DNA from: a virus
DNA length: 64,000 nt
Direction: 5' to 3' (one strand)
Virus genome (UHGV): UHGV-0332176
A program made the translations under genes and the position numbers. This document shows positions 2,868 to 58,923 of the stretch, piece by piece (within the stretch, counting starts at the first letter, position 1; each line of letters starts with the position of its first letter). The notes under the pieces were generated by a model. The model was not told the DNA's origin. It saw only the letters and a program-made list of their open reading frames with translations, and did no database searches.

Positions 2868-2875
2868 TATTTATA
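2868..2875 (-). promoter_or_regulatory. Candidate T4-type late promoter (TATAAATA on the minus strand), 26 nt upstream of the ATG at 2841
   Basis: Exact TATTTATA on the plus strand just upstream of a structural gene. A gp55-like sigma factor is encoded in the window. Confidence 0.4.
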
Positions 2876-5272: not shown

Positions 5273-5999
5273 TGCTAAATTAGTATCTGCTCCTTTAAAT
5301 ATTGAAGATATGGATAATGATTTAGAATCTAAAACAGTTTATATTTTTGATTATTCTAAATCAGAATTACAAGGATTAGATTTTTTAAATTATATAAAAA
5401 ATACTAATGTTATTGCCGATATATTCATACCTATTAATGTTCCAGAATATACAAAAATAACAATTTTAGAAGCATATATGAATTCGGTAACTTTTTATCA
5501 TATTGCTTCATTAAATTTAACCATTTTAAATTTAATTTATATTTTTAAAAATTCATCAAAAAGAACATTTTATTCTATTTTTACAGAAGAAGAATCATTA
5601 AGATTTATTGAATCACATAAAGATATATTAAATGAATGGATAAAAATATATGACTCTCTTTTTGCTTTTATGTTAATTTTATCAACAATGGATAAAAATG
5701 ATATATTAAATATTCATAAAATTCGCAGTCGTTATGATGATAGTAAAATGAATAAAATAAATAATATTTCTCCAAATGTTATGTCTTTATTACTTGATGA
5801 TGCTTTTTATTATTATTATCAAGATGGAATAGACCGTAATAATGTTTTCTATTATCCAAAATATTTTGAAGAAAATTTATATGATAATAAGCCATTACAA
5901 GCAATATTATTTAATGATGTTAATTTTATTATTAAAATATTATTTGATTTAGTTCATAGTGAACAATTTAATGATTTTGTAAAAAATACTTTAAAATAA
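5262..5999 (+). CDS. Hypothetical protein, 245 aa, start overlaps the radical-SAM gene (likely co-translated partner)
   Basis: ORF. ATGA-type overlap with the upstream gene. Confidence 0.35.
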   Translation: MTSNAKLVSAPLNIEDMDNDLESKTVYIFDYSKSELQGLDFLNYIKNTNVIADIFIPINVPEYTKITILEAYMNSVTFYHIASLNLTILNLIYIFKNSSKRTFYSIFTEEESLRFIESHKDILNEWIKIYDSLFAFMLILSTMDKNDILNIHKIRSRYDDSKMNKINNISPNVMSLLLDDAFYYYYQDGIDRNNVFYYPKYFEENLYDNKPLQAILFNDVNFIIKILFDLVHSEQFNDFVKNTLK

Positions 6000-7406
6000 A
6001 CTTAAAACAGAATCCATAGATATATTTGTTGAATTAGTAACCTTTCCAATAATTGAAGAAGGGTCATCCACAACTTTTAAAATATACTTTCCTTTATCTT
6101 CTGATTTATCATAATTTTCAATTGTTTTTTGAACTTGTAATACAAAATTAGTTTCATTTGCAAAACCTAATTTTCTTGCTGTATCAAGTAATTGTGATTT
6201 AAATTTATCCCATCTTTCTTCACTTGGAGCATCTAATATACCTTTAATAAATGCTACAGCATTTTCAACAGTAAATTGAACACCTTCTTTATAACGTTTA
6301 TTTAAAAATGTTGCCATATTTCCAGTAATATTTGAATTAATCATTGATTTCAAATATGCTTTGCTTTCTTCTGTTCCAAAAGTTGTCGTGTATGGTTCAA
6401 TATCTAATAAATCATTAGTTATACCTTCAAATTTAAACGAAACATTTACTTCATTTGGTGCCCAACTTCCAATTTTTCCTGTTCCAAAATCAATTGAGGT
6501 AATTTTTGGATTCATATAAGTATACACCATCATTTTATCCATATACATTTCAATAACAGAAATTTTATCAATGAAATTAAAATAACTATCTAAATTCCAT
6601 CCCCAATGAGTTGGGTCAGTATCAAATTGATGTAATAATATTTTTTTATCATAATCTGTATAATCTTTACATAAGAATGTATCATTAATAACTTTTAAAT
6701 ATGTAAAGAAAAATTGTTGTACAGGATTTTCTTTAACATCATAAAAAGAAATATTTAAATCTCCATATGATAATTTTTCATTTACCAAACGTGGACGATT
6801 ATATTCATTAAACTGTTTAACCTCAATATTAATCTTTGGTTTACTAATTGTTTTAACAAATTTAGATAATTCAAATGACAACTGTCTTAAAATAAATTTA
6901 TCTGGTAAATAATCAGCATTAGTTTCTGCATCAACATCTGCACTAATACCTAAAGCTCCACCAATAGCATCTGTTACCCCTTTTTTTAAATTTGAAAGAG
7001 AATTAGAAACCGATGAAATTGTACTTGAAATACTATCTGAAATAGTATCAAAAAAACTTTTATTAGTATCTTCAGAAACAGAATTTTGATATGATTCAGA
7101 TACATTTGTTGATGCCTGTTGGGCAGATAATCTAGTTAAATATTCAATTAATGATTTTTTTTGATTAATCAAAGTTTGTACTTCAGAATTCAATGAAAAA
7201 TAAACAAAAAACATTGTTTCTGGTTTAGGAAGATTTGGAATAGGAGCTTTTGTTTGATATTTTTTTTGACCTTCCAAATTTGTATATTCAGGGATAAAAT
7301 CTTGTCCATAAGCGGTACTTAAATAATCAACACCACTTAATGCTTTTACCGCATTTGAATTATAAAATTTATTAGTAACTCCGCTAATTAATGATTCTAT
7401 TCCCAT
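5991..7406 (-). CDS. Hypothetical protein (possible virion protein), 471 aa
   Basis: ORF preceded by a TATAAATA motif. Confidence 0.35.
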   Translation of the reverse strand: MGIESLISGVTNKFYNSNAVKALSGVDYLSTAYGQDFIPEYTNLEGQKKYQTKAPIPNLPKPETMFFVYFSLNSEVQTLINQKKSLIEYLTRLSAQQASTNVSESYQNSVSEDTNKSFFDTISDSISSTISSVSNSLSNLKKGVTDAIGGALGISADVDAETNADYLPDKFILRQLSFELSKFVKTISKPKINIEVKQFNEYNRPRLVNEKLSYGDLNISFYDVKENPVQQFFFTYLKVINDTFLCKDYTDYDKKILLHQFDTDPTHWGWNLDSYFNFIDKISVIEMYMDKMMVYTYMNPKITSIDFGTGKIGSWAPNEVNVSFKFEGITNDLLDIEPYTTTFGTEESKAYLKSMINSNITGNMATFLNKRYKEGVQFTVENAVAFIKGILDAPSEERWDKFKSQLLDTARKLGFANETNFVLQVQKTIENYDKSEDKGKYILKVVDDPSSIIGKVTNSTNISMDSVLSLF

Positions 7407-7979: not shown

Positions 7980-8990
7980 TTATTCATTCGTATATTCTTC
8001 TGTTGTTTCTTCAATATCATCTTCAATAATTTCATTACCATTATCATCATACAAAATATTTTTAAAATCTTCTTCTAATTGTTCATTAAATGTTGGATTA
8101 TATCCAATTTCTTGCATTAATTTTGATTTAATTCTACGTTGAGTTTTTTCAGAATTTAGTGTAGCAGTAAATTTATTTGATGCCACTTGTGTTAAATATG
8201 AAAAAACATTATTAGATTTTGATTCTTCAAACTTTAAAGCAACATCACATAAATGTACTAATGCTGACCCTTTCATATCATCTAAATATGTATATCCTGA
8301 CCAATTTCCTGATTTTGCAAATTGGTCAACCAACATAATTATCATATATACTAAACCATCACTTAATCTTCCTTGAGAAATATCAAAATGACCTGTTTCA
8401 ATAGTATCTCCTTTCCAATGAGAACGTAAAACTTCTTTTGCATCTTTCATAATATATTCAGAAAATGTTTCTGATAAATTTTTAATTTCTTGTGTTAAAC
8501 TTTCTATGTTTTCTTTACATAATTTATTATTTTCTTTATAAGGTTTTTGTTTTTCTTTTGTTTGTTGATTTAAACGAATATTTCTATTATTATCTTTAAT
8601 TATTTCTTTTAAATTTGAAATTTTTAAATTTAATTCATCAATTTTACTTAAATTATTACCAAATGCAATAAACACATTTTCATACGATTTTTTTGTAATT
8701 AAAAAATGTTTAAAAGGTGACATTTTTAATTCTTGTAAATTAACTTTACCATTTTTACAATAAGGTAATACGTGTTCATTTGTCATTACACGAATAATAA
8801 TATATTCATTATTTGGATTTTTCTTAAAAAAATCATTAACAACATTAGGAGTAATTAAATTATAATCATCACAAATAATATCATAATGTCCATATTCAGG
8901 TTTTTCATAACAACAATAAGTCAATTTAGATTTATGAACTTCTTCTAATAAATTTGAGTTCTTTAAAAAATATCTTTTTTCATTTTGCAT
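7980..8990 (-). CDS. gp55-like late-transcription sigma factor with a ~190-aa N-terminal extension, 336 aa
   Basis: The C-terminal half (GLVYMIIMLVDQFAKSGNWSGYT...FSYLTQVASNKF...) aligns by eye with the T4 gp55 core ([21 protein letters not shown]...AYITQACFNAF). Confidence 0.55.
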   Translation of the reverse strand: MQNEKRYFLKNSNLLEEVHKSKLTYCCYEKPEYGHYDIICDDYNLITPNVVNDFFKKNPNNEYIIIRVMTNEHVLPYCKNGKVNLQELKMSPFKHFLITKKSYENVFIAFGNNLSKIDELNLKISNLKEIIKDNNRNIRLNQQTKEKQKPYKENNKLCKENIESLTQEIKNLSETFSEYIMKDAKEVLRSHWKGDTIETGHFDISQGRLSDGLVYMIIMLVDQFAKSGNWSGYTYLDDMKGSALVHLCDVALKFEESKSNNVFSYLTQVASNKFTATLNSEKTQRRIKSKLMQEIGYNPTFNEQLEEDFKNILYDDNGNEIIEDDIEETTEEYTNE

Positions 8991-38843: not shown

Positions 38844-40415
38844 CTATACAGGTGCATTTAATTTTTGAACGACTTCTTTTGCAAATGTTTTTAATAGTTT
38901 CAATACATAAGTATCTTCACCATTTTTCTTTTCCTTAATTTCTTCTCTTTCTTCCTCTGTTAAAGGTCTAAAAGGATTATCATTTTTAGACAAAGAAGCA
39001 TCAATTTGAAGTTGTCTATTTAACATATTAAATCCTGTTAAATTTGTAATAGCTTTATGACCACCTGACATTGTTTTAATAACATCAATTAAAGATACTC
39101 GTTGATTATTCATAAATCTAATCATTCTCATTGATTGTTCAGCACGAGCAGGATTCATATTTTCACACCAATATTTTGACATTCTTAAACTCATTGAACG
39201 ACTTATTTTATTTTCAGGGTCAACATCAAATTCTGTTCTACAATTTTTAAAAATACTTTCAAAATCTAAAATATTAAAACCAATACAATATTTTTCTTTA
39301 ACATCTTCAATATTTCTTTCAAATTCTGATTTTAATGCCAATAATGAAACTGATTTATTATTCAGCCATTGAGTTTTTGAAAATTGATTTAAAAACATAT
39401 CGTGTAAAACAATTTTTCCTAAATCAACATTATCATTAACAGTAAGATTCCACGGATTACGAGATACTTGCATCATACCAATTTCATCCCAAATCATAAT
39501 AAAATATTTTGCTTGTGGAAAAATTCTAAAAGCTGTATAACGTTCATATGAACCAATTCTTTTCATATAACCACCACCAACTTGTACAATACAATCACCA
39601 ATTAAAATTGATTGCCCATTTTTCAATGTATTAATGTCTTCACAATTTAAACTTACTTTACTTTTATTTTTTTGGTCTTCAAAATATTTTTCAACATTTT
39701 CATTAATTTCAGTTGGTAATTTATATATTCTATAATCTTCACTATGATTATCAATAGTCCATTTTAATAACTGATTATAAATTGATTCTAATGATGGTTT
39801 ACAATTCATAACTAAATTAGTTAACCACGCATTTCTATTTTTATATGTAAGTAATAATTTATTACAAGCTAATGCCATTTCTAAATGACGCTTAAAATTA
39901 TCTTTATTTTTATCACATTTAAAAACTGCATTACCAACTTCTTTTGGATTAATATTATATTCAACAAAACTTGCTGAATCAATCATATCAATTGCTTTCT
40001 CATCATCACTTGAAAAAATACCATTTCCAATAATTGAAGAAATTGTTGATGCATTAGATTTAGAATGTCTAAAATGAACAGATGCATCATTATAAACTAT
40101 CTGACTTTGATGATGGTCGGTATGTATTTGAATAAATGGTTTTCCGTGTGAAAAATCAACCATTACTCCCATATTTCCTTCTTCAGGAGCAGAAATATTA
40201 TATTCATCACTTCCATAATTTAATTTATGGGCAGCAACAACTTTAATTCCATAACTATTAAGATATTCTTTCATAGCTAATGCACTTGTTACACCATCTA
40301 AATCAATATGAAAATAAATTTCTGCTTGCTTATATTTTTTAGCTAATTTTTTAATATTTCTAATACCAGACATTTTACTTCTTTCATTAAAATTAATATT
40401 ATCATTAAAATACAA
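38844..40415 (-). CDS. DHH/DHHA1-family phosphoesterase (NrnA/RecJ-like nuclease or nucleotide phosphodiesterase), 523 aa
   Basis: DHH motif I HIDLDGVTSA, motif III IHTDHHQ, and a C-terminal DHHA1-like SGGH motif. Confidence 0.6.
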   Translation of the reverse strand: MYFNDNINFNERSKMSGIRNIKKLAKKYKQAEIYFHIDLDGVTSALAMKEYLNSYGIKVVAAHKLNYGSDEYNISAPEEGNMGVMVDFSHGKPFIQIHTDHHQSQIVYNDASVHFRHSKSNASTISSIIGNGIFSSDDEKAIDMIDSASFVEYNINPKEVGNAVFKCDKNKDNFKRHLEMALACNKLLLTYKNRNAWLTNLVMNCKPSLESIYNQLLKWTIDNHSEDYRIYKLPTEINENVEKYFEDQKNKSKVSLNCEDINTLKNGQSILIGDCIVQVGGGYMKRIGSYERYTAFRIFPQAKYFIMIWDEIGMMQVSRNPWNLTVNDNVDLGKIVLHDMFLNQFSKTQWLNNKSVSLLALKSEFERNIEDVKEKYCIGFNILDFESIFKNCRTEFDVDPENKISRSMSLRMSKYWCENMNPARAEQSMRMIRFMNNQRVSLIDVIKTMSGGHKAITNLTGFNMLNRQLQIDASLSKNDNPFRPLTEEEREEIKEKKNGEDTYVLKLLKTFAKEVVQKLNAPV

Positions 40416-40476: not shown

Positions 40477-41838
40477 ATGAATATTTTATTAGAGCAATTA
40501 TTAATGAGTGAATTTACATTTGGTTTTGAATTAGAAGCCTATGTTGACCCATATAAAATTCCATTAAAAAATAATGAAAAATGGGAAAATATTAAACATT
40601 TTCCAACAAATAAAGTAATAACTTATATTGATAAACCATCCCTATTTAAAAATTTAGAATATTTTTTTAAAAATAATTTTTTTGGAATTAATAGTAATTT
40701 AACAGTTGAAGAAGATAATTCATTAAAATATAATGGATTTGAAATGCAATCTCCTGTTTTTAATTTAACTCCATTAAATATTTCACAATGTATAAAATTT
40801 TTATCTTCATTAAATAAAAATGAATATAAAATTTATACTGATAATAGTTGTGGTTTTCATACTCATTTTGCTTTTCCCGAAATAACTCCTGAAGATATAT
40901 ATTGGATTGAATGTCATTTGGCATTAGATAATCAAATGAAAGAAATTTTATCTTCAATTACAACAGAAGATAATGTAACTATTAATTTTATCACCGAAAA
41001 ATATTCTTCAGATGAATATTTAGATGATTTAAAAAATGCTATATTAAATGATAATTTTGAAGAAATTGCATATATTATGTCAGAAGAAAAAATGAGATTG
41101 TTAAGAAATCATCCTCAAGGAACTATTGAATGGAGAGGTCCAAGAAATTTTCTAAATAAACAAAATGTTAATGACATTAAAACATTTTTTATGAAAATAT
41201 ATACTTTTGCAAAATGGATTTCTGAAATATTAGATAAAAAAGAAATTAATGGCTATGATAAACAAACATTTTTAAATTTAATTAATGAATTTCATCCTCA
41301 ATACAAAAAAACATTTAAAAAATCATCAAAAATTGAAAAAATTATTGATAAAATCATTAATAAACCATCTTCTTTATTATATGCAAATTTTTCTTTACAC
41401 GATACTATTGATATTATTGATAAACTTTTTAAAAAATTAGGAGCAGAAAAATTTAATTCATTTATTATGAATTTTGCAACACGTGAAATTCCATCAAAAG
41501 TTTTAACAGGAATTTTAATGGTTGACCCAACTTTTTTTCGTTATTCTATTCAACATCAATCATTGCCAATTAAAGAATTAAATATAATAAATCCATTTTA
41601 TATTGCAGATATTTTTGAACAAAATAAAAAATATATTTCATTAAACGACATAAAAGATATTATTGAAAATGGAGAATTAACATATTTAACGATTTTTCCA
41701 ATTCTTTCAGAAATTTCAAAAAAACTCCATAAAAATATTTTTACTAAAAAAATATTATCAGCAATTTCACTAAAATATAATGTACCATATAATGAAGTTG
41801 TTCAAGATGCACAAGAATTTATTATTGAATTTCATTAA
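40477..41838 (+). CDS. Hypothetical protein, possibly GS-like amidoligase (FGFELE ... GFHTH motifs), 453 aa
   Basis: N-terminal FGFELEAY and CGFHTHFAF resemble the phage-associated amidoligase signature. The assignment is weak. Confidence 0.25.
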   Translation: MNILLEQLLMSEFTFGFELEAYVDPYKIPLKNNEKWENIKHFPTNKVITYIDKPSLFKNLEYFFKNNFFGINSNLTVEEDNSLKYNGFEMQSPVFNLTPLNISQCIKFLSSLNKNEYKIYTDNSCGFHTHFAFPEITPEDIYWIECHLALDNQMKEILSSITTEDNVTINFITEKYSSDEYLDDLKNAILNDNFEEIAYIMSEEKMRLLRNHPQGTIEWRGPRNFLNKQNVNDIKTFFMKIYTFAKWISEILDKKEINGYDKQTFLNLINEFHPQYKKTFKKSSKIEKIIDKIINKPSSLLYANFSLHDTIDIIDKLFKKLGAEKFNSFIMNFATREIPSKVLTGILMVDPTFFRYSIQHQSLPIKELNIINPFYIADIFEQNKKYISLNDIKDIIENGELTYLTIFPILSEISKKLHKNIFTKKILSAISLKYNVPYNEVVQDAQEFIIEFH

Positions 41839-45079: not shown

Positions 45080-45592
45080 TTATTTAAAATAGTATAAACC
45101 ATTTTCACTCAAACAACAATAATTTGAGTCAAAAAGTTTTTGATTAGTTGAAGCAAATTTCATATAATCATCAGTTTTTTCAGAAATTTGTGAAATTTTT
45201 TCATCATATAAACCACATTTTAAAAATGTAAATCCTGTAATATTTAATAATTTTACATATTCAACATCGTGTCCTGTATAAACACAAACTTCAAATGGTG
45301 ATTTTTCCAAAAATTCTTTTGTAAATTGATAATTAAAGCACGATAAAGGGTCGCCACCAGATAGTACAACTTTATTTGTATGATGTCTTTTTGATAAAAT
45401 TAATAATTCATTAATTAATTCATCAACTGTATATTCTTTTGTTTCTTCCTTAAAATCTGGATTTTTAAAACCTGGATTTTGACATTTCGGGCATCCGTTA
45501 TCACAACCCATCATTACAACAACTAAACTACAATTTTCTGTATCAGGATAATCAAGCCAAGTTGAAGTAATTGGTTGTAAAATTCGTGTCAT
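45080..45592 (-). CDS. nrdG: Anaerobic ribonucleotide reductase activating protein (radical SAM), 170 aa
   Basis: CDNGCPKC cluster (CxxxCxxC variant), LSGGDPL SAM motif, size and position beside nrdD. Confidence 0.75.
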   Translation of the reverse strand: MTRILQPITSTWLDYPDTENCSLVVVMMGCDNGCPKCQNPGFKNPDFKEETKEYTVDELINELLILSKRHHTNKVVLSGGDPLSCFNYQFTKEFLEKSPFEVCVYTGHDVEYVKLLNITGFTFLKCGLYDEKISQISEKTDDYMKFASTNQKLFDSNYCCLSENGLYYFK

Positions 45593-51913: not shown

Positions 51914-52106
51914 AATAAAACTTAATAAAAAAGATGCTGATAAAATTCAGGAATCTTTAAAATGTATTGATGATGAATATTTTTTAGAAGTTAATAAAAA
52001 GAATGTTATTGTGAACGATATGTATCATTTAAATGATAACATTAATATTATAATTAAAGGGTATGATGGTATTCACGATTATTATTATGGGAAAATCAAA
52101 GAATGA
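51894..52106 (+). CDS. Small hypothetical protein, 70 aa
   Basis: ORF overlapping the upstream gene end. Confidence 0.3.
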   Translation: MRKVMFRIKLNKKDADKIQESLKCIDDEYFLEVNKKNVIVNDMYHLNDNINIIIKGYDGIHDYYYGKIKE

Positions 52107-52408
52107 AATTAAAAGATATGAAATTATCACAAATTCGTAAGTTATCTGAATGTTATTGGGTTCAGCATCCAATGCAGTTATATGGAACAAAAGAAACAAA
52201 TAATGCAAAGTATAATAATGCTGCTATATTTCAATTAAATAATGAAAATATATTATATGGAATGAAACATTTTATGTTATATGATGAAGACCATATATTT
52301 ACGACAATAGATGAAGCAATTAATTATTGTAAAGAATATGGTTGGAATTATAGCATTACAAAAAATTATAATTATAAAGGGGATATTGATAATGGTAAAA
52401 ATAATTGA
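52103..52408 (+). CDS. Hypothetical protein, 101 aa
   Basis: ORF with ATGA overlap with the previous gene. Confidence 0.35.
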   Translation: MKLKDMKLSQIRKLSECYWVQHPMQLYGTKETNNAKYNNAAIFQLNNENILYGMKHFMLYDEDHIFTTIDEAINYCKEYGWNYSITKNYNYKGDIDNGKNN

Positions 52409-53108
52409 ACCACACGTTGAAGTTATTTCAGAAATTGATGGTGATAAAATTTTAAAGCAAATTGAAAGATGTGCAAGAAATTGTTATAAATCGGAAGGTA
52501 ATATTTCAGAAGATACAACATCTGCGGTGAAAATGATTAGTAAATTGATTGAATTAAATCATACGGCTATGATTGAATTTGCTGATATTATAGTTAATTT
52601 AATTTGCGATATTGGTGTTTATAAGGATTTAACAAGACATAGACATTGTAGCTTTGCTATTGAGAGCACTAGATATTGTAATTATTCTAAAGGGAAATTC
52701 GGTAATGAAATTTCGGTAATAAAACCTTGTAATATGGATGAAAATTCAGGAATTTATCATACTTGGCTTAAATCTATGACAGATATGGAAAAAGCATATA
52801 TGCAAATGGCAGAATTAGGAGCATTACCAGACCAATTAAGAATGGTTTTACCACATAGTTGTGCTGCATCAGTTATGATGAAAGCAAATATTAGAGAATG
52901 GCGACATATTTTTCAGCTTCGTTGTGCAAAACAAGCTCATCCATCTGTTCGTCAAATTATGTTATTAACTTTAAATGAATTTCATAATAAAATTCCTGTA
53001 TTATTTGATGATTTATTTTCGGAATATAAACAAGATATTATAGATACATATTCTAAATTAGAAACTAATTCTGAAACAGGTATTTTATATTCAAATTCAA
53101 ATTTATAA
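52392..53108 (+). CDS. thyX: Flavin-dependent thymidylate synthase ThyX, 238 aa from MVKIIEPH
   Basis: ThyX signature RHRHCSFAIESTR (RHRx7-8S). The ORF track starts at 52311, but the ATG at 52392 has an AAGGGG SD 9 nt upstream and avoids a long overlap with the preceding ORF. Confidence 0.8.
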   Translation: MVKIIEPHVEVISEIDGDKILKQIERCARNCYKSEGNISEDTTSAVKMISKLIELNHTAMIEFADIIVNLICDIGVYKDLTRHRHCSFAIESTRYCNYSKGKFGNEISVIKPCNMDENSGIYHTWLKSMTDMEKAYMQMAELGALPDQLRMVLPHSCAASVMMKANIREWRHIFQLRCAKQAHPSVRQIMLLTLNEFHNKIPVLFDDLFSEYKQDIIDTYSKLETNSETGILYSNSNL

Positions 53109-53128
53109 AACTTCTTGACAAATTATGA

Positions 53129-53163
53129 AACCTGTGTTATAAATATTCACAGGTTATTTTTTT
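53129..53163 (+). terminator. Terminator hairpin (AACCTGTG-TTATAAATATT-CACAGGTT plus T8) after thyX. The loop carries TATAAATA and the region also contains TTGACA-17-TATAAA
   Basis: Inverted repeat plus T-run. Promoter-like hexamers read directly. Confidence 0.5.
53138..53145 (+). promoter_or_regulatory. Candidate late promoter TATAAATA, 29 nt upstream of the first radical-SAM gene (also the -10 of a sigma70-like TTGACA-17-TATAAA)
   Basis: Exact motifs. Confidence 0.35.
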
Positions 53164-53173
53164 AGGATAAATT

Positions 53174-54517
53174 ATGAAATTTAATGAATATTTTAAGTTA
53201 AAAGATATAACAATTAATGTTACAAATTCTTGTAATTTAAATTGTGCTTATTGTTTTGAGCATAATAAAAATGGTTTAAAAATGTCAACTAATATGGTTG
53301 AGAAAATTATTGATAAAAGTTATGAAAATTATGTTTTAAATAATGAAACAAAATTTCCTTTTGTTGTTAATTTTTTTGGTGGAGAACCATTTTTAGCATT
53401 TGATGTAATGGAACACGCAATGAAATATGCCAATAATAAAAAATATAATATTTCATTTGGTGTAACAACAAATTTAACGATGCTTACAGACCATATGATT
53501 GATATTATTGAAGAATATGAATTGGGATTATTAGTGTCAGTTGATGGTATTAAAAAAATACACGATAGAAATCGTTGTAATTCTTATGACATTGTTATAT
53601 CTAATCTTAAAAAATTAATAGATAGAGGTTTAAAACATCTTATTGAAATTAGAATGACTGTTATGCCTGCTGATTTAAAAGATTTATTAAGTGGTATTCA
53701 AGAATTATATAATTTAGGAATTGATAATATTGCTCCTGTTCCTGTTACCGATACAAAATGGGAAGATTATGATTATATGAATTTAAGAGATGAAATGATT
53801 AAAATTTGGGAATGGGCATTTTTAATTTATAATGATGAAAACAATAAAAGAAATCTATCTATTAAATGTATAGATGATTATTTAGAAATGGTGTTATGCC
53901 CTGATATTTTATTACCTGAACAACGTAAAGTTTGTACAGCAGGAACATTTTCATCTTGTTCTTTTGGAGTTGATGGTGATATACTTCCTTGTCATCAACG
54001 TCATACAATTTCTGACCATTATGATGAATTAGTTATGGGTAATATTAATGATGATGAAATTAAAGAAATTAATTTTAATAATCAAACAATTGCTAACGAA
54101 AATAAAAATTGTGATGTATGTAATGCAAGAGCAATTTGTAAAGGGGGATGTCCATCTGAAAATTTAACATTGAATAAAGATGGAAATATTATGAATGATG
54201 TTCAATGTAATGTTTTAGAATATATGGTTGATGTTGCACAGCAATATCAATGGTGGCTTTTAAATGATATGTTACCTAATATTCGTTCTCGTAAATTAAA
54301 TATTTTAAGTCAAAATTTAAAATTATTAGGAATGTTATTAGATATTATTAAAAATGAAAGAAGTATTCAAGATAATGAAATTCAATTATTAAAATTTTAT
54401 GAAAAGTTATCTGATATTGAAGGAATACTTTTGCCTAATTTTAGAGATGCAATAAATTTTATAATTTATGGTATGGTAAATATTATTGATGAACAAATTA
54501 AAAATGAAGGTAAATGA
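53174..54517 (+). CDS. Radical SAM / SPASM-domain enzyme 1 (anSME-like peptide-modifying type), 447 aa
   Basis: CNLNCAYC, FFGGEP and VSVDG...HDRNR motifs. C-terminal SPASM cysteines (CTAGTF..C.....PCHQ...; CDVCNARAICKGGC). Confidence 0.8.
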   Translation: MKFNEYFKLKDITINVTNSCNLNCAYCFEHNKNGLKMSTNMVEKIIDKSYENYVLNNETKFPFVVNFFGGEPFLAFDVMEHAMKYANNKKYNISFGVTTNLTMLTDHMIDIIEEYELGLLVSVDGIKKIHDRNRCNSYDIVISNLKKLIDRGLKHLIEIRMTVMPADLKDLLSGIQELYNLGIDNIAPVPVTDTKWEDYDYMNLRDEMIKIWEWAFLIYNDENNKRNLSIKCIDDYLEMVLCPDILLPEQRKVCTAGTFSSCSFGVDGDILPCHQRHTISDHYDELVMGNINDDEIKEINFNNQTIANENKNCDVCNARAICKGGCPSENLTLNKDGNIMNDVQCNVLEYMVDVAQQYQWWLLNDMLPNIRSRKLNILSQNLKLLGMLLDIIKNERSIQDNEIQLLKFYEKLSDIEGILLPNFRDAINFIIYGMVNIIDEQIKNEGK

Positions 54518-55335
54518 TGGCTGATAGTAATATTGTTAATCGTCAAATATATCAAGATATTAGAGATACTTTTAAACAACGAGCAATGAATTGGAACGGT
54601 GTTTGGAAAGTTTGGAATAATCAATCTCCTGATTGGGGCGGACGTTGGGTTGGTGGTTGGAAAGGACCAGCAATTAAGATGCACGATACTATTCCTGAAT
54701 CAGAAAGGGATAGAATTCAAAAAGAATATACTGGTTTATCAGGTGAAGTTAATCAAGTTATTGTTGAAGAATCATCTAAAATTCATACATTAGGTAATGA
54801 AAATAATATTCGTAGAGCGGTTATTAGTTTAAATAATGTGACAGATGCAAATATCGGTGTTTATTTAGGAAGTCAAAAATTACCAAAAATTGAGATTAAC
54901 ACAATTGGAACAGCTGGAAATTTTAATCCTGATGTAAATATTGCTAATACATCTGATGATTATACTGTAAACAAATATAATACTTCATATGTTAGAGATA
55001 TACCAGCTAATAAAGTTGTTAATACAACAACAGGTCAAGAAATACCATTAAATTCTGTTATTACAAAAGATATTAATCAAAAAACTCAAATGGCAGGAAC
55101 ATCTGACCCAACTCAATCATCGCAAGCTGAAGGTATTGTTAAAAAATCAGATTATGAATTGATTAGAACAGTTTTAGAAAGAATCAAAGATTGTTTAATT
55201 CAAAAAAATTCTTGGTTTACTTATAATGGTATTTGTAGTCGTAGTTGTCAAATAAATTGCCAAAATAGATGTCAAGTTTCTTGTCAGGCTTGTAATACTA
55301 AACAATGTCACGACCAAAATTGTGGTACTTCATAG
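54514..55335 (+). CDS. Putative substrate/precursor protein: Trp-rich N-terminal region and C-terminal Cys-rich tail CSRSCQINCQNRCQVSCQACNTKQCHDQNCGTS, 273 aa
   Basis: Eight Cys in the final 31 residues with CxxxC periodicity. Gene embedded between SPASM enzymes. Start ATGA overlaps the upstream gene. Confidence 0.5.
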   Translation: MMADSNIVNRQIYQDIRDTFKQRAMNWNGVWKVWNNQSPDWGGRWVGGWKGPAIKMHDTIPESERDRIQKEYTGLSGEVNQVIVEESSKIHTLGNENNIRRAVISLNNVTDANIGVYLGSQKLPKIEINTIGTAGNFNPDVNIANTSDDYTVNKYNTSYVRDIPANKVVNTTTGQEIPLNSVITKDINQKTQMAGTSDPTQSSQAEGIVKKSDYELIRTVLERIKDCLIQKNSWFTYNGICSRSCQINCQNRCQVSCQACNTKQCHDQNCGTS

Positions 55336-55347
55336 GATAAAAATTAA

Positions 55348-56550
55348 ATGGAAATGTATGAAAAAATCAAGAAATTGACTGTAAAGACTTTTTCTGGTTG
55401 TAATCTTAATTGTCAATATTGTCATCAATTAAATGATGATAAACATAAACCATTATCATTTACAAAATATGATGAATTATCACAATTTTTATTAACTATT
55501 CCGTTAGATGATAAAGTTATTGTTTCAATTGTTGGGGGAGAAGTATCTTTAAGACCAGATTTAATAGAAAATTTATATAAAAAATCTTTATTAAAAGTAT
55601 CAAGACAAAAAGATGTTCAATTTGAATGTGGAACAGTTACTAATGGAACAAATATTGATTATATTTTAGATTTATGTGATAGAGATATATTTAAGCCAAA
55701 ACATTGTGCATTTTCTTGGGATGGTTTGTATTCTGCTTCCTTATCTCGTAAATGTAATGGGTTATTTAATGATGAATTTTTTCAAAATGTTGTTAAAAAA
55801 ATTGGTAAGAGTAAACATAGAGATGATTTTACGATTGTTCACGCTATAACTCCAGAAACATTAGATTACTTATATGATAGTTTTAAATTTTGTATAGATA
55901 ATGGAGCAATTAATTTTGGTTATTATTTAATTCACGAAGGAAATTATAGTGATATAAACCTTCAAGAAAAATTTAAAAATCAAATTTATAAAATATATAA
56001 TTTGTATGTTGAAGAAGCAAATAAAGGAAATTATATTAATTTATTTAATTGGTTAAATATTACTTTAAGAAGACGTATTAATGAAGCCTTTTTTACGTGT
56101 GCCAAATTAGGTATAAATTATTATATTGACCCTGATGGTGATATATATCCGTGCATATATTTTGGTGACCATAGAGCATATAAATTTGGTAATATAAAAA
56201 CAGGAATTGATAAAAATATTCAAGATAAATTTATTGAAGATTATTATCATTATCCGCAATGTGAATTTAAAACTTGTAAATGTTACCAATGTAATGAATG
56301 TCCTGCATCTAATTATGTTCATAATGGAAATATGAATATGCGATTTAAAAATGGATGTGCATTATATCAAATTGAAAATCAAATTTATGATGAATTATCT
56401 AAAAAAATTATAAGACAAGATATTTATACATCTGAAGATAGAAATAGACATATATTTGATTTAAATAAATTTGTTGATTGCGAATTAGATATAACACAAA
56501 ATAGTTATCAATCTCCAAATTTAGAATTTGTTAGAAAATGGAGAAAATAA
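55348..56550 (+). CDS. Radical SAM / SPASM-domain enzyme 2, 400 aa
   Basis: CNLNCQYC and IVGGEVSL motifs. C-terminal IDPDGDIYPC ... CEFKTCKCYQCNEC. Confidence 0.8.
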   Translation: MEMYEKIKKLTVKTFSGCNLNCQYCHQLNDDKHKPLSFTKYDELSQFLLTIPLDDKVIVSIVGGEVSLRPDLIENLYKKSLLKVSRQKDVQFECGTVTNGTNIDYILDLCDRDIFKPKHCAFSWDGLYSASLSRKCNGLFNDEFFQNVVKKIGKSKHRDDFTIVHAITPETLDYLYDSFKFCIDNGAINFGYYLIHEGNYSDINLQEKFKNQIYKIYNLYVEEANKGNYINLFNWLNITLRRRINEAFFTCAKLGINYYIDPDGDIYPCIYFGDHRAYKFGNIKTGIDKNIQDKFIEDYYHYPQCEFKTCKCYQCNECPASNYVHNGNMNMRFKNGCALYQIENQIYDELSKKIIRQDIYTSEDRNRHIFDLNKFVDCELDITQNSYQSPNLEFVRKWRK

Positions 56551-57710
56551 TGGGAAATATTAAATTACCACCAATAATTACGCACGCTTATATTATGGTT
56601 ACTGAACAATGTAATTTACGTTGTCAATATTGTTATATTAAAAATAGGGATATTAAAAACGAATTTCCGTTTGAATGGATGGAAAAAGTTAAAAAAATGT
56701 TTACTTGTTACAATAAACCAAGAATAATATTTTTTGGTGGAGAACCATTATTAAAAGTTGAGTTAATTAAACAAATTGTTAATGAATATAAAAATGATTT
56801 TCAATTTCAAGTTGTAACAAATGGAACGATTAATTTTCATAAATTTATGGATGAAGTTTATGAACCAAATAAAACAAATTTTGATGTACAAATATCGTGG
56901 GATGGTAATGTTGATACTCGGAAAACGTATAATGGAAATATAACTAATTTAACTGTTTATGATAATATTATATCAGAATTAAATAAAGGAAGAATTTTAG
57001 TTGGAAGATGTGTTTTAAATGAAGAATCAGTAAAAAATTTTTATAATACATACCAAACATTTAAAAAATTAAATAAAGAATATAAATTTGGTGCAGATTT
57101 TACGATTGCTCATCAGCCATTATTTCAAGAAACATTTTTTAGTGATTTAATAAATGAGCTTCAAAAAATATATCAAGATATACAAATAGATTTAAAAAAT
57201 AATCAACATTTATATATTCCCAATCTTTTATTAAAAACAATTACAAATATTTTAGAAAATGAACCTGTTATTTCTTGTGATGTTGGGTCATATGTTGTTT
57301 TAAAACCAAATGGTGATGTTTATCCGTGTACAATTTTATCACAACAAGATGAAAGATTTAAATTAGGTAATATTAATGAAACTGTTGATACAGAATTAAT
57401 TAATGATTTACGATATAAATCATCTTGTAAAAAAGAATGTCCATTTAAAGCCATTTGTGATGGTGGTTGCAGATATGAAAGAATTATTAATTATCCACAA
57501 ACTTGGTGTACTGATATATGTTCACATACTTGTAAAATTTATGAGGGAATTTATAATGAAACAATAAATTTTTTAAATATGTTATCAAAAGAAGAAACAA
57601 CGAAGTTATATGAAATATTAACACAATATAATATTTGGAGTATAAATTACCGAAATAATAATCATAATAGAATAGATAATCAAGATAGATTAACAAATAT
57701 AAAGATATAA
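56538..57710 (+). CDS. Radical SAM / SPASM-domain enzyme 3, 390 aa
   Basis: CNLRCQYC and FFGGEPLL motifs. C-terminal LKPNGDVYPC ... CKKECPFKAICDGGC. Confidence 0.8.
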   Translation: MEKIMGNIKLPPIITHAYIMVTEQCNLRCQYCYIKNRDIKNEFPFEWMEKVKKMFTCYNKPRIIFFGGEPLLKVELIKQIVNEYKNDFQFQVVTNGTINFHKFMDEVYEPNKTNFDVQISWDGNVDTRKTYNGNITNLTVYDNIISELNKGRILVGRCVLNEESVKNFYNTYQTFKKLNKEYKFGADFTIAHQPLFQETFFSDLINELQKIYQDIQIDLKNNQHLYIPNLLLKTITNILENEPVISCDVGSYVVLKPNGDVYPCTILSQQDERFKLGNINETVDTELINDLRYKSSCKKECPFKAICDGGCRYERIINYPQTWCTDICSHTCKIYEGIYNETINFLNMLSKEETTKLYEILTQYNIWSINYRNNNHNRIDNQDRLTNIKI

Positions 57711-57736
57711 ATATTTGTATTATAAAGGAAGTAAAA

Positions 57737-58882
57737 ATGTTATTATTTATGCCTGAAAGAATTTATGAATATTTTAAAAATGATGAAATTTTAAATGAAA
57801 AACTTGAAAAAGTTAGATTATTATTATTAAATCCAGAACATCATTATGATTTAAAAGATTTATTAAAAATGAATAATGAAATGTTTACAGATGTTCATCA
57901 ATATTTGCTTGAAAAAGTGCCAGAAGATTTGAAAGAAGAAATGAAAATTTGTTCTGACAATCATAAAGGTGGGTCAGACAAATATATGATTAATTTTGAT
58001 AATTATGATGATGAAACAAAAATATTTTTATTGTATATTTACAATAATGGGGATATGAGTCCAAATGATGCATTATATGATAGATATAATAAAATTGAAC
58101 AAATTTATGAAAAAAATGAAATGCAAAATTTTTCGCCATTTATTCATACAATTTATTATTTTGTTAAATTATTTTTGCATTGGGTTAATAATGAAAATAT
58201 AAAATATGTTAATGAAAATGGATTTTTCCCTTATGAAAATATTAAAAAATTTTTAAGTTTTGAAGAAGATTTATATAATAAAATATTACTAAAATGTAAT
58301 ACTGAACAATTTTTTCATATTTTATTTCATAAACGTATACAAATGATGTTTATGTTTATGCTTTTTATTGGTCAATTTAGTGATAATTTTGATAAAGTCG
58401 TTGATGATATAGTTAGACGTGTTTATAATAATAGATTTAAATATGATAATTTTAATTATTTAAAAATTGCTATTAATCATATTTTTTTTCAAACATATTT
58501 TGATAAAGGGAATTTTATTAAAGCTAAAAAATATTTAATGTATAATATTTCAATTATTAATTATGGATTTTCACATAAATTTGAAATGGTAAAAGCATTA
58601 AATCATTTTAATAAAATTTTTAATAGAGAATTTTGTAATTATTTGTTTTTCTTATATACAATGATACGAGTTTATATTCCAAAATTACAAAAAGAATTTA
58701 ATATTTTAAATTGTCCTGATGCAACAGAATTTGAAAAACGATTATTATTTGGAAAATTTAATGATGATGAAAAAAATTTAGGTATAGATACAAATCCAAA
58801 TGAATGGTTATCTTTTAAATGGTGTCAGAATAATAAAGTATCATTTGATTATTTTAATCAAATAGTTGACAAGATAAATTAA
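57737..58882 (+). CDS. Hypothetical protein, last gene of the radical-SAM operon, 381 aa
   Basis: ORF with SD (aaggaag) upstream, followed by a terminator. Confidence 0.4.
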   Translation: MLLFMPERIYEYFKNDEILNEKLEKVRLLLLNPEHHYDLKDLLKMNNEMFTDVHQYLLEKVPEDLKEEMKICSDNHKGGSDKYMINFDNYDDETKIFLLYIYNNGDMSPNDALYDRYNKIEQIYEKNEMQNFSPFIHTIYYFVKLFLHWVNNENIKYVNENGFFPYENIKKFLSFEEDLYNKILLKCNTEQFFHILFHKRIQMMFMFMLFIGQFSDNFDKVVDDIVRRVYNNRFKYDNFNYLKIAINHIFFQTYFDKGNFIKAKKYLMYNISIINYGFSHKFEMVKALNHFNKIFNREFCNYLFFLYTMIRVYIPKLQKEFNILNCPDATEFEKRLLFGKFNDDEKNLGIDTNPNEWLSFKWCQNNKVSFDYFNQIVDKIN

Positions 58883-58890
58883 ATATGCTA

Positions 58891-58923
58891 AAATCTCCAT
58901 AATTATAATTATGGAGATTTTTT
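58891..58923 (+). terminator. Terminator hairpin AAATCTCCATAATTATAATTATGGAGATTT plus T6. The 3' arm contains the GGAG SD of the ligase gene
   Basis: Inverted repeat ending 1 nt before the ATG at 58924. Confidence 0.6.

Follow-up and report, generated by a model that had tools for sequence, protein, structure and literature searches.

An apparently undescribed phage cassette that couples radical SAM/SPASM enzymes to a protein with a conserved eight-cysteine tail

Results

The locus lies in a 64,000-nucleotide stretch of viral DNA (the window) and comprises five plus-strand genes (53174-58882), all of which had been correctly placed by the original prediction. They encode three radical SAM/SPASM enzymes (rSAM1, rSAM2 and rSAM3), a 273-aa protein ending in an eight-Cys tail, and a TPR-like helical protein (ORF5). 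The GC content and composition of the cassette equal those of the rest of the window. Sequence and RNA folding reveal a hairpin with a T-run on either side, in agreement with the two terminators proposed at 53129-53163 and ∼58891-58923; a simple terminator scan missed both hairpins, which were detected by RNA folding. The terminator-like site 3′ of thyX (53129-53163, plus strand) consists of a hairpin at 53129-53155 (-10.4 kcal/mol, z -2.5) and a T-run to 53163, whereas the closing site (58890-58923, plus strand) has a more stable hairpin at 58890-58921 (-15.1 kcal/mol, z -5.0). The latter overlaps a sigma-70-like promoter for the ligase gene (58866-58894, TTGACA-17-TAAAAT; scan 11/12 with TG).

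The promoter region of the cassette (53115-53145, plus strand) is composed of TTGACA (53115-53120), a 17-nt spacer and TATAAATA (53138-53145), the latter being the T4-type late-promoter consensus with the rSAM1 ATG (53174) 36 nt after the motif start. The motif sits in the loop of the thyX-side hairpin, such that the terminator-like site overlaps it, and the same arrangement is found in the equivalent hairpin of a related locus (L006). A second plus-strand copy at 57706-57713, located by motif search, has the ORF5 start codon 31 nt from its start. Of the 22 copies in the window, 12 precede a gene start by 26-54 nt in the proper orientation (0.66 expected), and the genes of known function preceded by a copy are structural or packaging genes. 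In this phage the copy at 53138, which had been proposed as a promoter, behaves like one of the late type; it is, however, not conserved in relatives, as the 90%-identical loci L001-L003 lack it and carry a sigma-70-like promoter in its place.

The window genome is that of a T4-superfamily giant phage, as had been supposed, and no cultured representative of the phage was found. An NrdG-like activase (45080-45592) and a small rSAM (4448-5272) are supported as radical-SAM genes and bring the number in the window to the predicted five. As both NrdD and NrdG are encoded, an anaerobic host is implied. The cassette resides between thyX and the ligase gene, a site kept in related phages.

All three enzymes score above the Pfam gathering score for PF04055 and PF13186, consistent with their prior assignment as rSAM/SPASM rather than QueE/NrdG-like proteins, and all contain GGE motifs, GX4C and 4-5-Cys clusters in the SPASM region. 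rSAM1 (53174-54517, plus strand, 447 aa, CNLNCAYC; PF04055 7.5e-17, PF13186 3.2e-5) has CX3CX2C at 20, GGEP, GX4C, CX2CX5CX3C at 313 and an additional C345, as well as a C-terminal helical extension of ∼90 aa. Its top NCBIfam models are PapB (192 bits), QhpD (134 bits) and the SCIFF maturase (123 bits). rSAM2 (55348-56550, plus strand, 400 aa, CNLNCQYC; PF04055 4.7e-10, PF13186 5.1e-5) exhibits an unusual auxiliary-cluster motif, C-x4-C-x-C-x2-C-x2-C, and weakly matches PapB (92 bits) and the CXXX-repeat maturases TIGR04115 and TIGR04119. rSAM3 (56538-57710, plus strand, 390 aa, CNLRCQYC; PF04055 3.9e-10, PF13186 2.2e-6) has the motif C-x3-C-x5-C-x3-C, matches PapB at 102 bits and attains 45 bits against the TIGR04085 SPASM model (cutoff 27). 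For each enzyme every NCBIfam equivalog score falls far under the curated cutoff (e.g. PapB, 192 vs 340). The best solved structure is in all cases CteB (8e-27, 1.7e-15 and 8e-13 for rSAM1, rSAM2 and rSAM3, respectively), with the rSAM1 alignment to 5WGG beginning at CteB residue 96. The resemblance to ranthipeptide, SCIFF and QhpD maturases that had been noted is thus borne out by the best curated matches. Profile searches detected no RRE in any cassette protein, including at the N-terminus of rSAM1, and no protease or exporter/transporter in the cassette.

Six catalytic-site-proximity residues were defined as in PMC10288494. In rSAM1 these read FFTSHQ, identical to CteB at 6/6 positions, and in 81 rSAM1 orthologues F, F, T and S are 98-100% conserved, with His at 80% and Gln or Asn at 79%. 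rSAM1 is therefore predicted to be a CteB-like thioether (ranthionine/sactionine) synthase. The rSAM2 profile is HVVSIY, with [F/H]T[I/V]S x [Y/F] conserved in 58 orthologues, and that of rSAM3 is YFVSTI, with invariant Y, F, S and T in 64 orthologues. rSAM2 and rSAM3 are paralogues of long standing, and the profile that each conserves differs from that of rSAM1.

The gene for the 273-aa protein (54514-55335, plus strand), the predicted substrate, begins in an ATGA overlap with the rSAM1 stop codon. The protein has no Pfam, NCBIfam or PHROG match. It displays the Trp-rich N-terminus and eight-Cys C-terminus described earlier: alignment of 14 homologues delineates an N-terminal helix with a W-x-N-(x)-P loop and a conserved HTLGNENNIRR motif, followed by a hypervariable middle, an amphipathic helix and the tail, CSRSCQINCQNRCQVSCQACNTKQCHDQNCGTS, of the pattern C-x3-CQ-x2-CQ-x2-CQ-x2-CQ-x-C-x4-CH-x-Q-x-CG. 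The Cys residues are regularly placed as claimed (spacing x3, x3, x3, x3, x2, x4, x4), although the next residue is Gln in only 4 cases out of 8 and S, N, H or G in the rest, rather than Gln or Asn throughout. The tail is invariant across 15 full-length homologues. AF2 models the helices with confidence but gives the tail a pLDDT <50, with a low-confidence helix over part of it; such a failure to fold is expected if the segment needs modification.

A profile search defined a conserved C-terminal module, residues 209-273 (55138-55332, plus strand), made up of a helix, WF-x-x-N-G-x-C and a Cys/Gln core (C241-C270; 55234-55323, plus strand). The module is common to 121 cluster representatives, nearly all of which carry it at the extreme C-terminus, and the exact spacing C3C3C3C3C2C4C4C occurs in 97 of 130 representatives. 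Gln follows Cys2-5 in 88-97%, His25 is 100% and Q27 95% conserved, and the eight Cys and the His are invariant in alignment A2 and in the 97 canonical tails. Triplets of the form aromatic-x-polar (W-F-D, H-[ND]-Q) border the Cys core, and in P0115 and P0121 the CQxx repeat has grown to ∼10-20 units. The bodies that bear the tail are very diverse (protein length 49-950 aa), and some are tail-fiber-like or carbohydrate-binding: among the inserts of homologues, some resemble tail or tail-fiber families of PHROG (2e-12, 5e-10, 8e-8 and 2e-5) and others match CBM_5_12 or a discoidin-like domain. The fiber-like matches are inserted domains of other family members, and the window protein has none. 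In some second tail copies the module is internal rather than terminal.

The module is a conserved C-terminal unit that is nearly exclusive to phages, with 121 protein clusters and 123 IMG/VR loci, whereas a set of 185,579 species genomes yielded it on only 3 MAG contigs. Module and gene order recur, far beyond chance, in the ∼90 loci examined. Synteny is strict: each of the 31 non-redundant cassettes has an rSAM1 orthologue immediately before its first tail gene, mostly with gaps of -19 to +29 nt, and in L078-L092 a second rSAM1-type gene often directly precedes a second tail gene. In the commonest lineage the cassette is placed after tail-fiber genes. rSAM2 and rSAM3 occur together with the TPR-like protein and are missing from three lineages, so that the minimal conserved unit is rSAM1 plus tail (L004, L005 and L017). 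With rSAM1 as the only enzyme, the tail of these lineages is either a full eight-Cys tail or shortened, which the proposed roles of rSAM2, rSAM3 and ORF5 do not account for. The notion of three maturases for one substrate is accordingly not demonstrated, the CteB profile also being confined to rSAM1.

ORF5 (57737-58882, plus strand, 381 aa), the fifth gene, was left uncharacterised in the original prediction and is a conserved cassette partner with an all-alpha TPR-like solenoid. The structures that it most resembles are those of peptide-binding RRNPP receptors, phage Rap and AimR among them, although the TPR similarity is generic and no DNA-binding domain is detectable. ORF5 is probably a non-catalytic adaptor that binds substrate or enzyme, a role we assign tentatively. 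No published description of the cassette was found in the literature, nor any in curated family libraries; it thus appears, as had been suspected, to be an undescribed conserved phage system.

Discussion

The 31/31 adjacency to rSAM1 makes the Cys-tail protein very probably the substrate of a cassette enzyme, as first proposed. On balance, we favour a RiPP-like maturation that operates at the protein level, with rSAM1 stapling the tail through thioethers, rSAM2 and rSAM3 adding other modifications, and the product serving as a virion fiber or decoration protein. rSAM1 would be made just before the 273-aa protein, with translation probably coupled, and as a CteB/QhpD-type enzyme may bind the C-terminal helix-plus-tail module. 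By means of a 5′-deoxyadenosyl radical and its auxiliary clusters, it would link tail Cys to carbons of neighbouring residues, in the side chain or the backbone; the near-invariant Gln, along with a Gln/Thr at position 23, stand out as acceptors. This would produce a ladder of small thioether rings, i.e. a redox-insensitive covalent staple formed in the anaerobic cytoplasm. With their other active-site linings, rSAM2 and rSAM3 probably put further modifications on the same protein, and ORF5 may act as a binding adaptor that substitutes for the absent RRE domains; these latter roles are put forward with low confidence.

Thioether chemistry is somewhat more likely than not, even though Gln has no established role as a ranthionine acceptor. 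A virion location is slightly favoured, and the modified protein would most likely be exposed as a fiber or decoration, with conserved termini that form a stalk, either anchored or oligomerising, and an exchangeable middle domain that binds surfaces. The fiber-like inserts, the cassette position after tail-fiber genes in the commonest lineage and the late-promoter motif at canonical distance point in this direction, whereas the neighbours in the window, thyX and ligase, belong to nucleotide metabolism rather than to structural genes. If correct, this suggests that phages covalently staple a protein of their own with antibiotic-type peptide-crosslinking chemistry.

The tail might instead be modified without thioethers, by anSME-like conversion of Cys to formylglycine, by cyclophane-type crosslinking through C-C or C-O bonds at W-F-D or H-N-Q, by epimerisation or by a new reaction. 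We regard this as rather unlikely, although SPASM enzymes span many reaction types, sequence similarity poorly predicts function in this clade (PMC10288494), all curated cutoffs are missed, the profiles of rSAM2 and rSAM3 are not CteB's, aromatic-x-polar triplets border the Cys core and some relatives weakly match cyclophane synthase models. The identity of rSAM1 to CteB at all six active-site positions speaks for thioethers, as does the invariance of Cys, the invariant substrate residue in all thioether RiPPs, and the window protein lacks the anSME motif C/S-x-P/A-x-R. An insertion of a known host system, for instance an anSME with its sulfatase or a ranthipeptide cluster of bacteria present as a moron, is effectively refuted: the weak anSME model match (87 bits vs a cutoff of 349) is outweighed by the lack of a sulfatase or known precursor family, the window-like GC content, the conserved thyX-ligase position and the near-absence of the module from bacterial genomes.

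The kinship of the enzymes to RiPP maturases raises the prospect of a classical RiPP, in which the large protein is a carrier or leader and a modified C-terminal peptide of ∼35 residues is cleaved off as a diffusible product, for example a bacteriocin-like agent aimed at competitors, an effector of superinfection exclusion or anti-defence, or an RRNPP-style signal sensed by ORF5. Like RiPP cores, the module is located at the C-terminus, the preceding helix could be a recognition sequence, and ORF5 is structurally closest to peptide-binding receptors; the generic nature of that similarity and the lack of a detectable DNA-binding domain weaken the last point. The cassette also has no protease, exporter or RRE, no conserved cleavage motif precedes the core, the module is internal in some second copies, and the 'leaders' would be hypervariable, up to 950 aa long and equipped with fiber-like and carbohydrate-binding domains, so that we consider a released peptide unlikely. 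The original description as a RiPP/ranthipeptide-like cassette therefore holds for enzyme kinship but not for a classical cluster, against which the sub-cutoff NCBIfam scores, the missing RRE, protease and transporter, a 'precursor' of 49-950 aa and acceptor candidates that are Gln/Thr rather than Asp/Glu all stand. Metals are frequently bound on the axis of phage fibers, and eight invariant Cys with one invariant His, in a tail for part of which AF2 predicts a low-confidence helix, could form a metal- or Fe-S-binding domain, for instance as an axial ladder in a trimeric fiber (cf. the iron sites that HxH motifs form in T4 fibers) or as an rSAM redox partner, with the enzymes acting elsewhere. 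This is a still less probable account: it explains neither the near-invariant Gln after Cys, nor the strict adjacency to a CteB-like enzyme, nor the matching of each extra tail gene by one rSAM1-type gene, CX3C repeats are not known as an Fe-S motif, and the cassette conserves no other candidate substrate.

Comparison with known systems

CteB, the SCIFF (thermocellin) maturase (PDB 5WGG/5WHY), resembles the cassette enzymes in its radical SAM core and SPASM domain with two auxiliary clusters, shares all six proximity residues with rSAM1 and acts on a substrate that is likewise Cys-rich at its C-terminus. It differs in being bacterial, in its N-terminal RRE (the cassette alignments begin at ∼CteB residue 95) and in forming Cys-to-Thr links in a ∼45-aa peptide, where the cassette is predicted to act on a protein; the SCIFF model, whose cutoff is 425, gives rSAM1 123 bits. 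PapB (freyrasin, NF047865) is the top NCBIfam model for rSAM1, rSAM2 and rSAM3 (192, 92 and 102 bits, all below 340). In its peptide precursor, a regular Cys repeat with acceptors at fixed spacing yields a ladder of small thioether rings, the topology proposed for (CQxx)n, although PapB strictly requires Cys-X3-Asp with a carboxylate whereas the cassette candidates are Gln/Thr at other spacings. QhpD (TIGR03906; second-best for rSAM1, 134 bits vs a cutoff of 453) is the only well-studied SPASM rSAM that installs several intra-protein thioethers to stabilise a structural subunit, joining Cys to Asp/Glu in QhpC (PMC8172795), which is retained with no peptide released. QhpC is, however, a small enzyme subunit with a CTQ cofactor, and a dedicated protease and a flavoprotein are encoded in the qhp operon, which has no viral context.

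The tail is itself a CXXX repeat (C-x3-C four times), and the models TIGR04115 (rSAM_Cxxx_rpt) and TIGR04119 (CXXX_matur) are second-best for rSAM2 and its orthologues (55 and 41 bits; cutoffs 350 and 150), yet no tail protein, expanded-repeat ones included, matched the NCBIfam precursor models; to our knowledge the bacterial CXXX-repeat systems are biochemically uncharacterised. In streptococcal NxxC-type RaS-RiPPs (NxxcB), short peptides under shp/rgg control, Cys is joined to the beta-carbon of an Asn three positions upstream, and the QxxC units of the cassette would be a Gln analogue, which we offer as a lead only. We know of no dedicated radical enzymes or thioethers in virion proteins. 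Virions are reinforced by the isopeptide chainmail of the HK97 capsid and by the metal-binding HxH motifs of T4 fibers; these are autocatalytic or metal-mediated, unlike the cassette, but would have in common with it the purpose of reinforcing extracellular virion proteins.

Organization of the cassette

The five co-directional ORFs called in the original prediction lie exactly where it placed them, flanked by thyX (PF02511) upstream and a gene for an NAD-dependent DNA ligase downstream. On the plus strand, the stop codon of rSAM1 (53174-54517) overlaps, as ATGA, the start codon of the gene for the 273-aa Cys-tail protein (54514-55335); rSAM2 (55348-56550), rSAM3 (56538-57710) and ORF5, which encodes 381 aa (57737-58882), come next. 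The terminators proposed at the two boundaries are present as hairpins with T-runs that were overlooked by a generic terminator scan and are far more stable than shuffled sequence (-10.4 kcal/mol, z -2.5; -15.1 kcal/mol, z -5.0). The thyX ORF as listed (265 aa from 52311; region 52103-53108) overlaps the preceding 101-aa ORF. Its relatives have 216-260 aa and begin near 'MVKIIEP', and the true start is therefore probably around 52392.

A C-terminal Cys module

The Cys-rich C-terminus attributed to the 273-aa protein comprises eight Cys in 30 residues. Among 14 full-length homologues (34-92% identity) every Cys, four Cys-Gln pairs, QCH, Q268 and CG are invariant, and the middle region is hypervariable with insertions. 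A profile search of 1.84 billion cluster representatives retrieved 121 proteins with the module, 49-950 aa in length, most of which have only the last ∼70 residues in common. The module is built of an amphipathic helix, a W-[FWY]-D-x-N-G-x motif and the Cys core, and ends 1-5 residues before the stop codon in nearly all 121 representatives. The exact spacing C-x3-C-x3-C-x3-C-x3-C-x2-C-x4-C-x4-C is observed in 97 of 130, with Gln after Cys 2-5 in 88-97%, an invariant His25, Gln27 in 95%, and Gln or Thr at position 23. The CQxx unit is expanded to ∼10-20 copies in two family members, and one subgroup carries a shortened three-Cys version.

Neither the tail protein nor its module has a match in Pfam, NCBIfam, PHROGs or the PDB, by sequence or by fold. 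The AF2 monomer model is confident for the N- and C-terminal helices and uninformative for the variable middle and the tail. Members of the family share one frame, in which an N-terminal helix leads into a loop of the W-x-N-(x)-P type (VWNNQSPDW in the window) and a variable insert separates this loop from the C-terminal helix and the Cys tail; no clear pattern links the W-x-N-P or Trp-rich loop to cassettes that have rSAM2 and rSAM3. Nor is the module C-terminal throughout: in some cassettes second and third tail genes (L043 9306-11642 and the second tail genes of L041 and L048, all fetched loci of relatives) encode a shortened, internal version (…CQVNCQSTCQLTCQHRQ…), followed by a ∼120-aa aromatic-rich extension ending in CxxC. 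An invariant motif of the N-terminal domain, (E)S..IHTLGNENNIRR, corresponds to residues 86-100 of the 54514-55335 product. The motif recurs inside a Gly-rich, fiber-like tail protein of 747 aa (L004 4050-6293) and near the C-terminus of P0106, a cluster representative without a Cys tail, and may be a separate attachment or assembly motif.

Distribution and gene order

A scan of IMG/VR gave 123 loci with the module, many of them on contigs of 130-290 kb. One genome each of 185,579 bacterial and archaeal species yielded three matches, all on MAG contigs, one of which is a 283-kb phage-like scaffold. By this distribution, the Cys tail reads as a conserved, portable, phage-specific module.

ORFs were called in all 92 fetched loci and classified by phmmer, jackhmmer and a tail HMM. 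The tail ORFs fall into 37 clusters at 90% identity, 36 of which have upstream DNA available. In 31 of these an rSAM1-type gene lies directly upstream of the tail gene, mostly with a gap of -19 to +29 nt. The remaining five are second or third tail genes in cassettes whose first tail gene follows rSAM1, so that the order rSAM1-then-tail holds in every cassette. Each cassette has 1-5 rSAM genes and 1-3 tail genes, and one lineage repeats the arrangement, its second tail gene directly following a second rSAM1-type gene. rSAM2 and rSAM3 each form one separate orthologue group. In three lineages (L004, L005 and L017) rSAM1 is the sole rSAM within 8-10 kb and the ORF5 family is absent. The gene set is unbroken even where mobile elements (TnpB, HNH and others) are inserted between cassette genes. 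Such insertions have happened repeatedly (L006 9140-13233, L009 9296-10961 and L017 8331-10314). They comprise an IS605-type TnpB, a pair of genes (∼290 aa and ∼270 aa) seen more than once, and two HNH endonucleases.

The radical SAM enzymes

All three enzymes belong to the rSAM/SPASM superfamily, as had been proposed, with PF04055 and PF13186 above the Pfam gathering thresholds in each. The CX3CX2C cluster motifs are CNLNCAYC at residue 20 (rSAM1), CNLNCQYC at 18 (rSAM2) and CNLRCQYC at 25 (rSAM3), and the SAM-binding motifs are GGEP, GGEV and GGEP, respectively. A GX4C motif and clusters of 4-5 Cys are found in the SPASM region of all three. The rSAM1 motif is canonical (C254, G268-x4-C273, C313x2Cx5Cx3C, C345) and predicts two auxiliary clusters, that of rSAM3 is CX3CX5CX3C, and that of rSAM2 is a variant, Cx4CxCx2Cx2C. 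The rSAM1 orthologue at L005 4395-5738, on an NCBI metagenome contig, has an insertion in the cluster motif (CNMKECCGDYCSYC versus CX3CX2C).

The enzymes are mutually just 22-25% identical, and each has its own orthologues at 1e-40 to 1e-177. PapB, a ranthipeptide maturase, is the top-scoring curated model for each of the three (192, 92 and 102 bits versus a cutoff of 340). Next for rSAM1 come QhpD (134 bits versus 453), the SCIFF maturase (123 versus 425) and other peptide-modifying SPASM enzymes. The equivalog cutoffs of the thioether synthases PapB, SCIFF and QhpD are missed by a wide margin, and rSAM1, judged by its model scores, is placed outside every curated equivalog family. The second-best models for rSAM2, far below cutoff, are 'CXXX-repeat' maturases, a suggestive link given that the tail is itself a CXXX repeat.

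Among solved structures, CteB, the SCIFF thioether synthase, matches all three enzymes best. Alignment starts only at ∼residue 95 of CteB, indicating that the N-terminal RRE of CteB is missing from the cassette enzymes; their radical SAM cores begin at residues 14-20, and no PF05402 or PqqD-like domain was detected in any of the five cassette proteins. The positions of CteB assigned to 'catalytic site proximity' are F112, F152, T186, S210, H363 and Q364 (PMC10288494). All six are identical in rSAM1 (F28, F68, T98, S122, H274 and Q275; FFTSHQ). In 81 unique rSAM1 orthologues the first four positions are 98-100% conserved, followed by His in 80% and Gln or Asn in 79%, the main profiles being FFTSHQ (50), FFTSPD (15) and FFTSHN (13). 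The conservation of these active-site residues makes rSAM1 a credible thioether synthase. No match to CteB is seen for rSAM2 (HVVSIY; [F/H]T[I/V]S x [Y/F] in its orthologues) or for rSAM3 (YFVSTI, of which Y, F, S and T do not vary among 64 orthologues); both are conserved enzymes whose chemistry probably differs from that of rSAM1. A division of the eight Cys among the three enzymes was rejected as the default, as cassettes with rSAM1 only bear the same tail and the rSAM2 and rSAM3 profiles differ.

ORF5 and a possible virion role of the tail protein

One or two copies of the ORF5 family accompany essentially all multi-rSAM cassettes. A role as protease or other enzyme was rejected in view of its TPR-like fold and the lack of invariant catalytic-type residues. 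From fold and co-occurrence, we infer that ORF5 binds rather than catalyses, serving as an adaptor for rSAM2 and rSAM3, which lack an RRE. A member of the RRNPP family would be expected to have, besides a TPR-type alpha-solenoid, a cognate peptide and either an effector or an HTH domain.

The variable inserts of relatives of the tail protein match PHROG 'tail protein' and 'tail fiber protein' families (2e-12, 5e-10, 8e-8 and 2e-5), and include a CBM_5_12 domain, a weak discoidin-like domain and, by eye, Gly-rich beta repeats. In the most frequent lineage the cassette lies directly 3′ of tail-fiber genes on the same strand (8e-17, 2e-8). The cassette neighbours in this genome are nucleotide-metabolism genes, and the window's own 273-aa protein has no structural-protein match in Pfam, NCBIfam, PHROG or the PDB. 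A virion fiber or decoration protein is the best-supported, if tentative, reading of the tail protein.

Late-promoter motif and expression

The promoter motif reported at 53138, TATAAATA, is present. Of its 22 copies in the window, 12 precede a gene start in the right orientation at a distance of 26-54 nt (11 starts in all; 0.66 copies expected), for example at 2868, 7428, 7434, 13772, 15695, 32199, 37018, 40441, 40445, 53138 and 57706. Where the function of the genes behind these copies is known, it is a structural or a packaging one (tail, baseplate, virion, terminase), and TATAAATA is a genuine promoter signal in the window. Its distances to the starts of rSAM1 (36 nt) and ORF5 (31 nt) both fit this pattern. 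Together with a gene for a gp55-like late sigma factor (7980-8990, -), the placement of the motif indicates that T4-type late transcription seems to be conserved in this distant giant phage. Of 69 distinct regions 5′ of rSAM1 in relatives, only 2 contain the motif, and relatives of 90% identity have instead a sigma-70-type promoter, TTGACA-17-TATTGT. We have therefore downgraded the view of the cassette as a late, structural operon driven from 53138; a late operon in this phage only is plausible. Elsewhere in the window, TATAAATA precedes each gene of a divergent pair (38844-40415, -; 40477-41838, +), which are late-expressed genes with faint, below-cutoff matches to DHH phosphoesterase and amidoligase_2.

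Genome and host

The GC content is ∼25% across the window, with no compositional break at the cassette. T4-type functions encoded in the window include a baseplate wedge protein (phrog_10646, 2e-287), a tail sheath and a tail tube, and the gp55-like sigma factor is accompanied by a terminase, RtcB and a family-B DNA polymerase. The nearest deposited relatives of this polymerase are those of the giant T4-superfamily phages Atu_ph07, RaK2, GAP32 and CBB (36-38% identity), and close relatives of the cassette are carried by viral contigs of 206-290 kb. Megablast of the cassette gave no close match in deposited phage genomes. Likewise, tblastn against deposited phages found no match to the 273-aa protein, to its N-terminal part or to a second tail module, in searches where the BLAST low-complexity filter may mask the tail. 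Matches to rSAM1 in deposited phages are distant (≤27% identity), and UniProt holds two uncharacterised 'Myoviridae sp.' relatives of ORF5. The terminase large-subunit ORF (35923-36999, -), at only 358 aa, matches just the middle of terminase profiles and may be split or intron-interrupted. A homing endonuclease gene is located at 2871-3839 (-).

The window contains an NrdD/NrdG pair and, in agreement with the original prediction, five radical SAM genes, namely those of the three cassette enzymes, NrdG and a small non-SPASM enzyme at 4448. The latter (4448-5272, +; CPFSCAFC, Fer4_12) forms a second radical SAM module with an overlapping gene (5262-5999, +) for a 245-aa partner of phrog_20767, a family without assigned function, and the pair adjoins the tail-tube gene (5991-7406, -). 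It recurs in L005 (272 aa and 243 aa) beside a 474-aa gene, pointing to a pair conserved next to tail genes. Judging by IMG/VR sample numbering and MAG titles, which name a Solobacterium and a rumen Bacilli bin, many contigs apparently come from anaerobic, host-associated (human-associated) sources. Just 3′ of the cassette in L020, and in the L025-L036 lineage, three consecutive genes (902, 532 and 449 aa; L020 10325-16068) resemble by eye YadA-type trimeric autotransporter adhesins, those of L020 having a signal peptide, a 'TITNVAAGR..STDAVNGSQL' motif, a coiled coil and a C-terminal anchor-like segment. This resemblance, if true, would imply a diderm host.

Proposed mechanism and alternatives

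We propose that rSAM1 would recognise the C-terminal helix and tail, perhaps, as it has no RRE, by means of its own ∼90-residue helical C-terminal extension. It would then make several Cys thioethers inside the tail, as do CteB, PapB and QhpD (PMC8172795). The Gln residues, nearly invariant as they are, and the Gln or Thr of position 23 are the candidate acceptors. Shortened tails (C-QRS-C-QIN-C-QTxVQKS) have lost the next Cys but keep the Gln that lies five positions beyond the last one, which hints at Cys(i)-to-Gln(i+5) rings. Such a ladder would form a compact knot resistant to reduction and proteases. Disulfides are no option in an anoxic cytoplasm, and the proposed knot could be formed there, in keeping with a genome that carries NrdD/NrdG and with many contigs being apparently of anaerobic, host-associated origin. 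In most lineages rSAM2, rSAM3 and ORF5 would add further modifications. Taken together, our tentative reading is that giant phages of anaerobic hosts may encode their own multi-enzyme radical SAM pathway, which would install thioether and probably further radical crosslinks in a portable Cys/Gln module of virion fiber or decoration proteins as an oxygen-independent substitute for disulfides, with a new Cys-Gln acceptor chemistry and an RRE-independent, TPR-assisted recognition.

A different, non-thioether chemistry on the same tail is rather unlikely; in its favour, function prediction is unreliable in this clade and every cutoff is missed. That the product is a released RiPP peptide or signal is quite unlikely, given that protease, exporter and cleavage motif are all lacking and that 'leaders' of 950 aa with a fiber-like build fit it poorly. 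A purely metal-binding tail would leave the conservation of Gln and the strict adjacency to the enzyme unexplained, and we consider it very unlikely. Host acquisition, whether of an anSME acting on a sulfatase, the counter-explanation named in the original prediction, or of a bacterial RiPP moron, can be regarded as effectively refuted. Neither a sulfatase domain nor a C/S-x-P/A-x-R motif is present, the enzymes score 87, 29 and 59 bits against TIGR03942 (cutoff 349), the GC content is that of the window, and the cassette is nearly absent from bacterial genomes.

Significance and comparison with known systems

To our knowledge, rSAM/SPASM enzymes have been found to form thioethers in small peptides of bacteria and in a single bacterial enzyme subunit, QhpC. 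If the proposed pathway is true, it would be the first radical SAM maturation of a viral structural protein: viruses would direct this chemistry at a portable module of proteins that they encode themselves and that are probably exposed on the virion. Virions would thereby gain a covalent reinforcement of a new kind, fit for anoxic habitats. It would further add three new clades of RRE-less SPASM enzymes and a compact, ∼35-residue substrate with a likely new acceptor (Gln), a natural 'staple tag' for proteins of very different size that is of interest for protein engineering. Such a system would come as a surprise to RiPP enzymologists as well as to phage structural biologists, and the family (121 clusters, >120 viral contigs) is defined well enough for direct testing. 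The enzyme superfamily and the probable reaction type are already known; what is new is the module on the substrate side, its setting in viruses and probably in structural proteins, the organization with several enzymes and a TPR protein, and the candidate Gln acceptor. Full-text searches of the literature yielded no published description of a phage rSAM/SPASM cassette of this kind, PMC12801897 and PMC11118758 being unrelated to it. Large surveys of RiPP radical SAM enzymes depend on RREs and on UniProt and would miss it, and the same blind spot affects any mining built on RREs, short precursors and the bacterial genomes in UniProt (PMC10288494).

The defining accessories of RiPP clusters (RRE, short precursor, protease and transporter) are all missing from the cassette. 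No peptidase or transporter domain is present in it or conserved across 31 cassettes, and the predicted substrates, at 49-950 aa with folded variable bodies, depart from the canonical precursor. With the CXXX-repeat systems TIGR04115/TIGR04119 only the CXXX periodicity is in common, as indicated by model scores of 83, 55 and 50 bits versus 350, and 41 versus 150; the tail proteins match no NCBIfam model. CteB is closest to rSAM1 in sequence and active site. In its manner of working, the cassette would be most like QhpD/QhpC, in forming several thioethers at the protein level, and PapB/freyrasin, in building a regular ladder of small rings.
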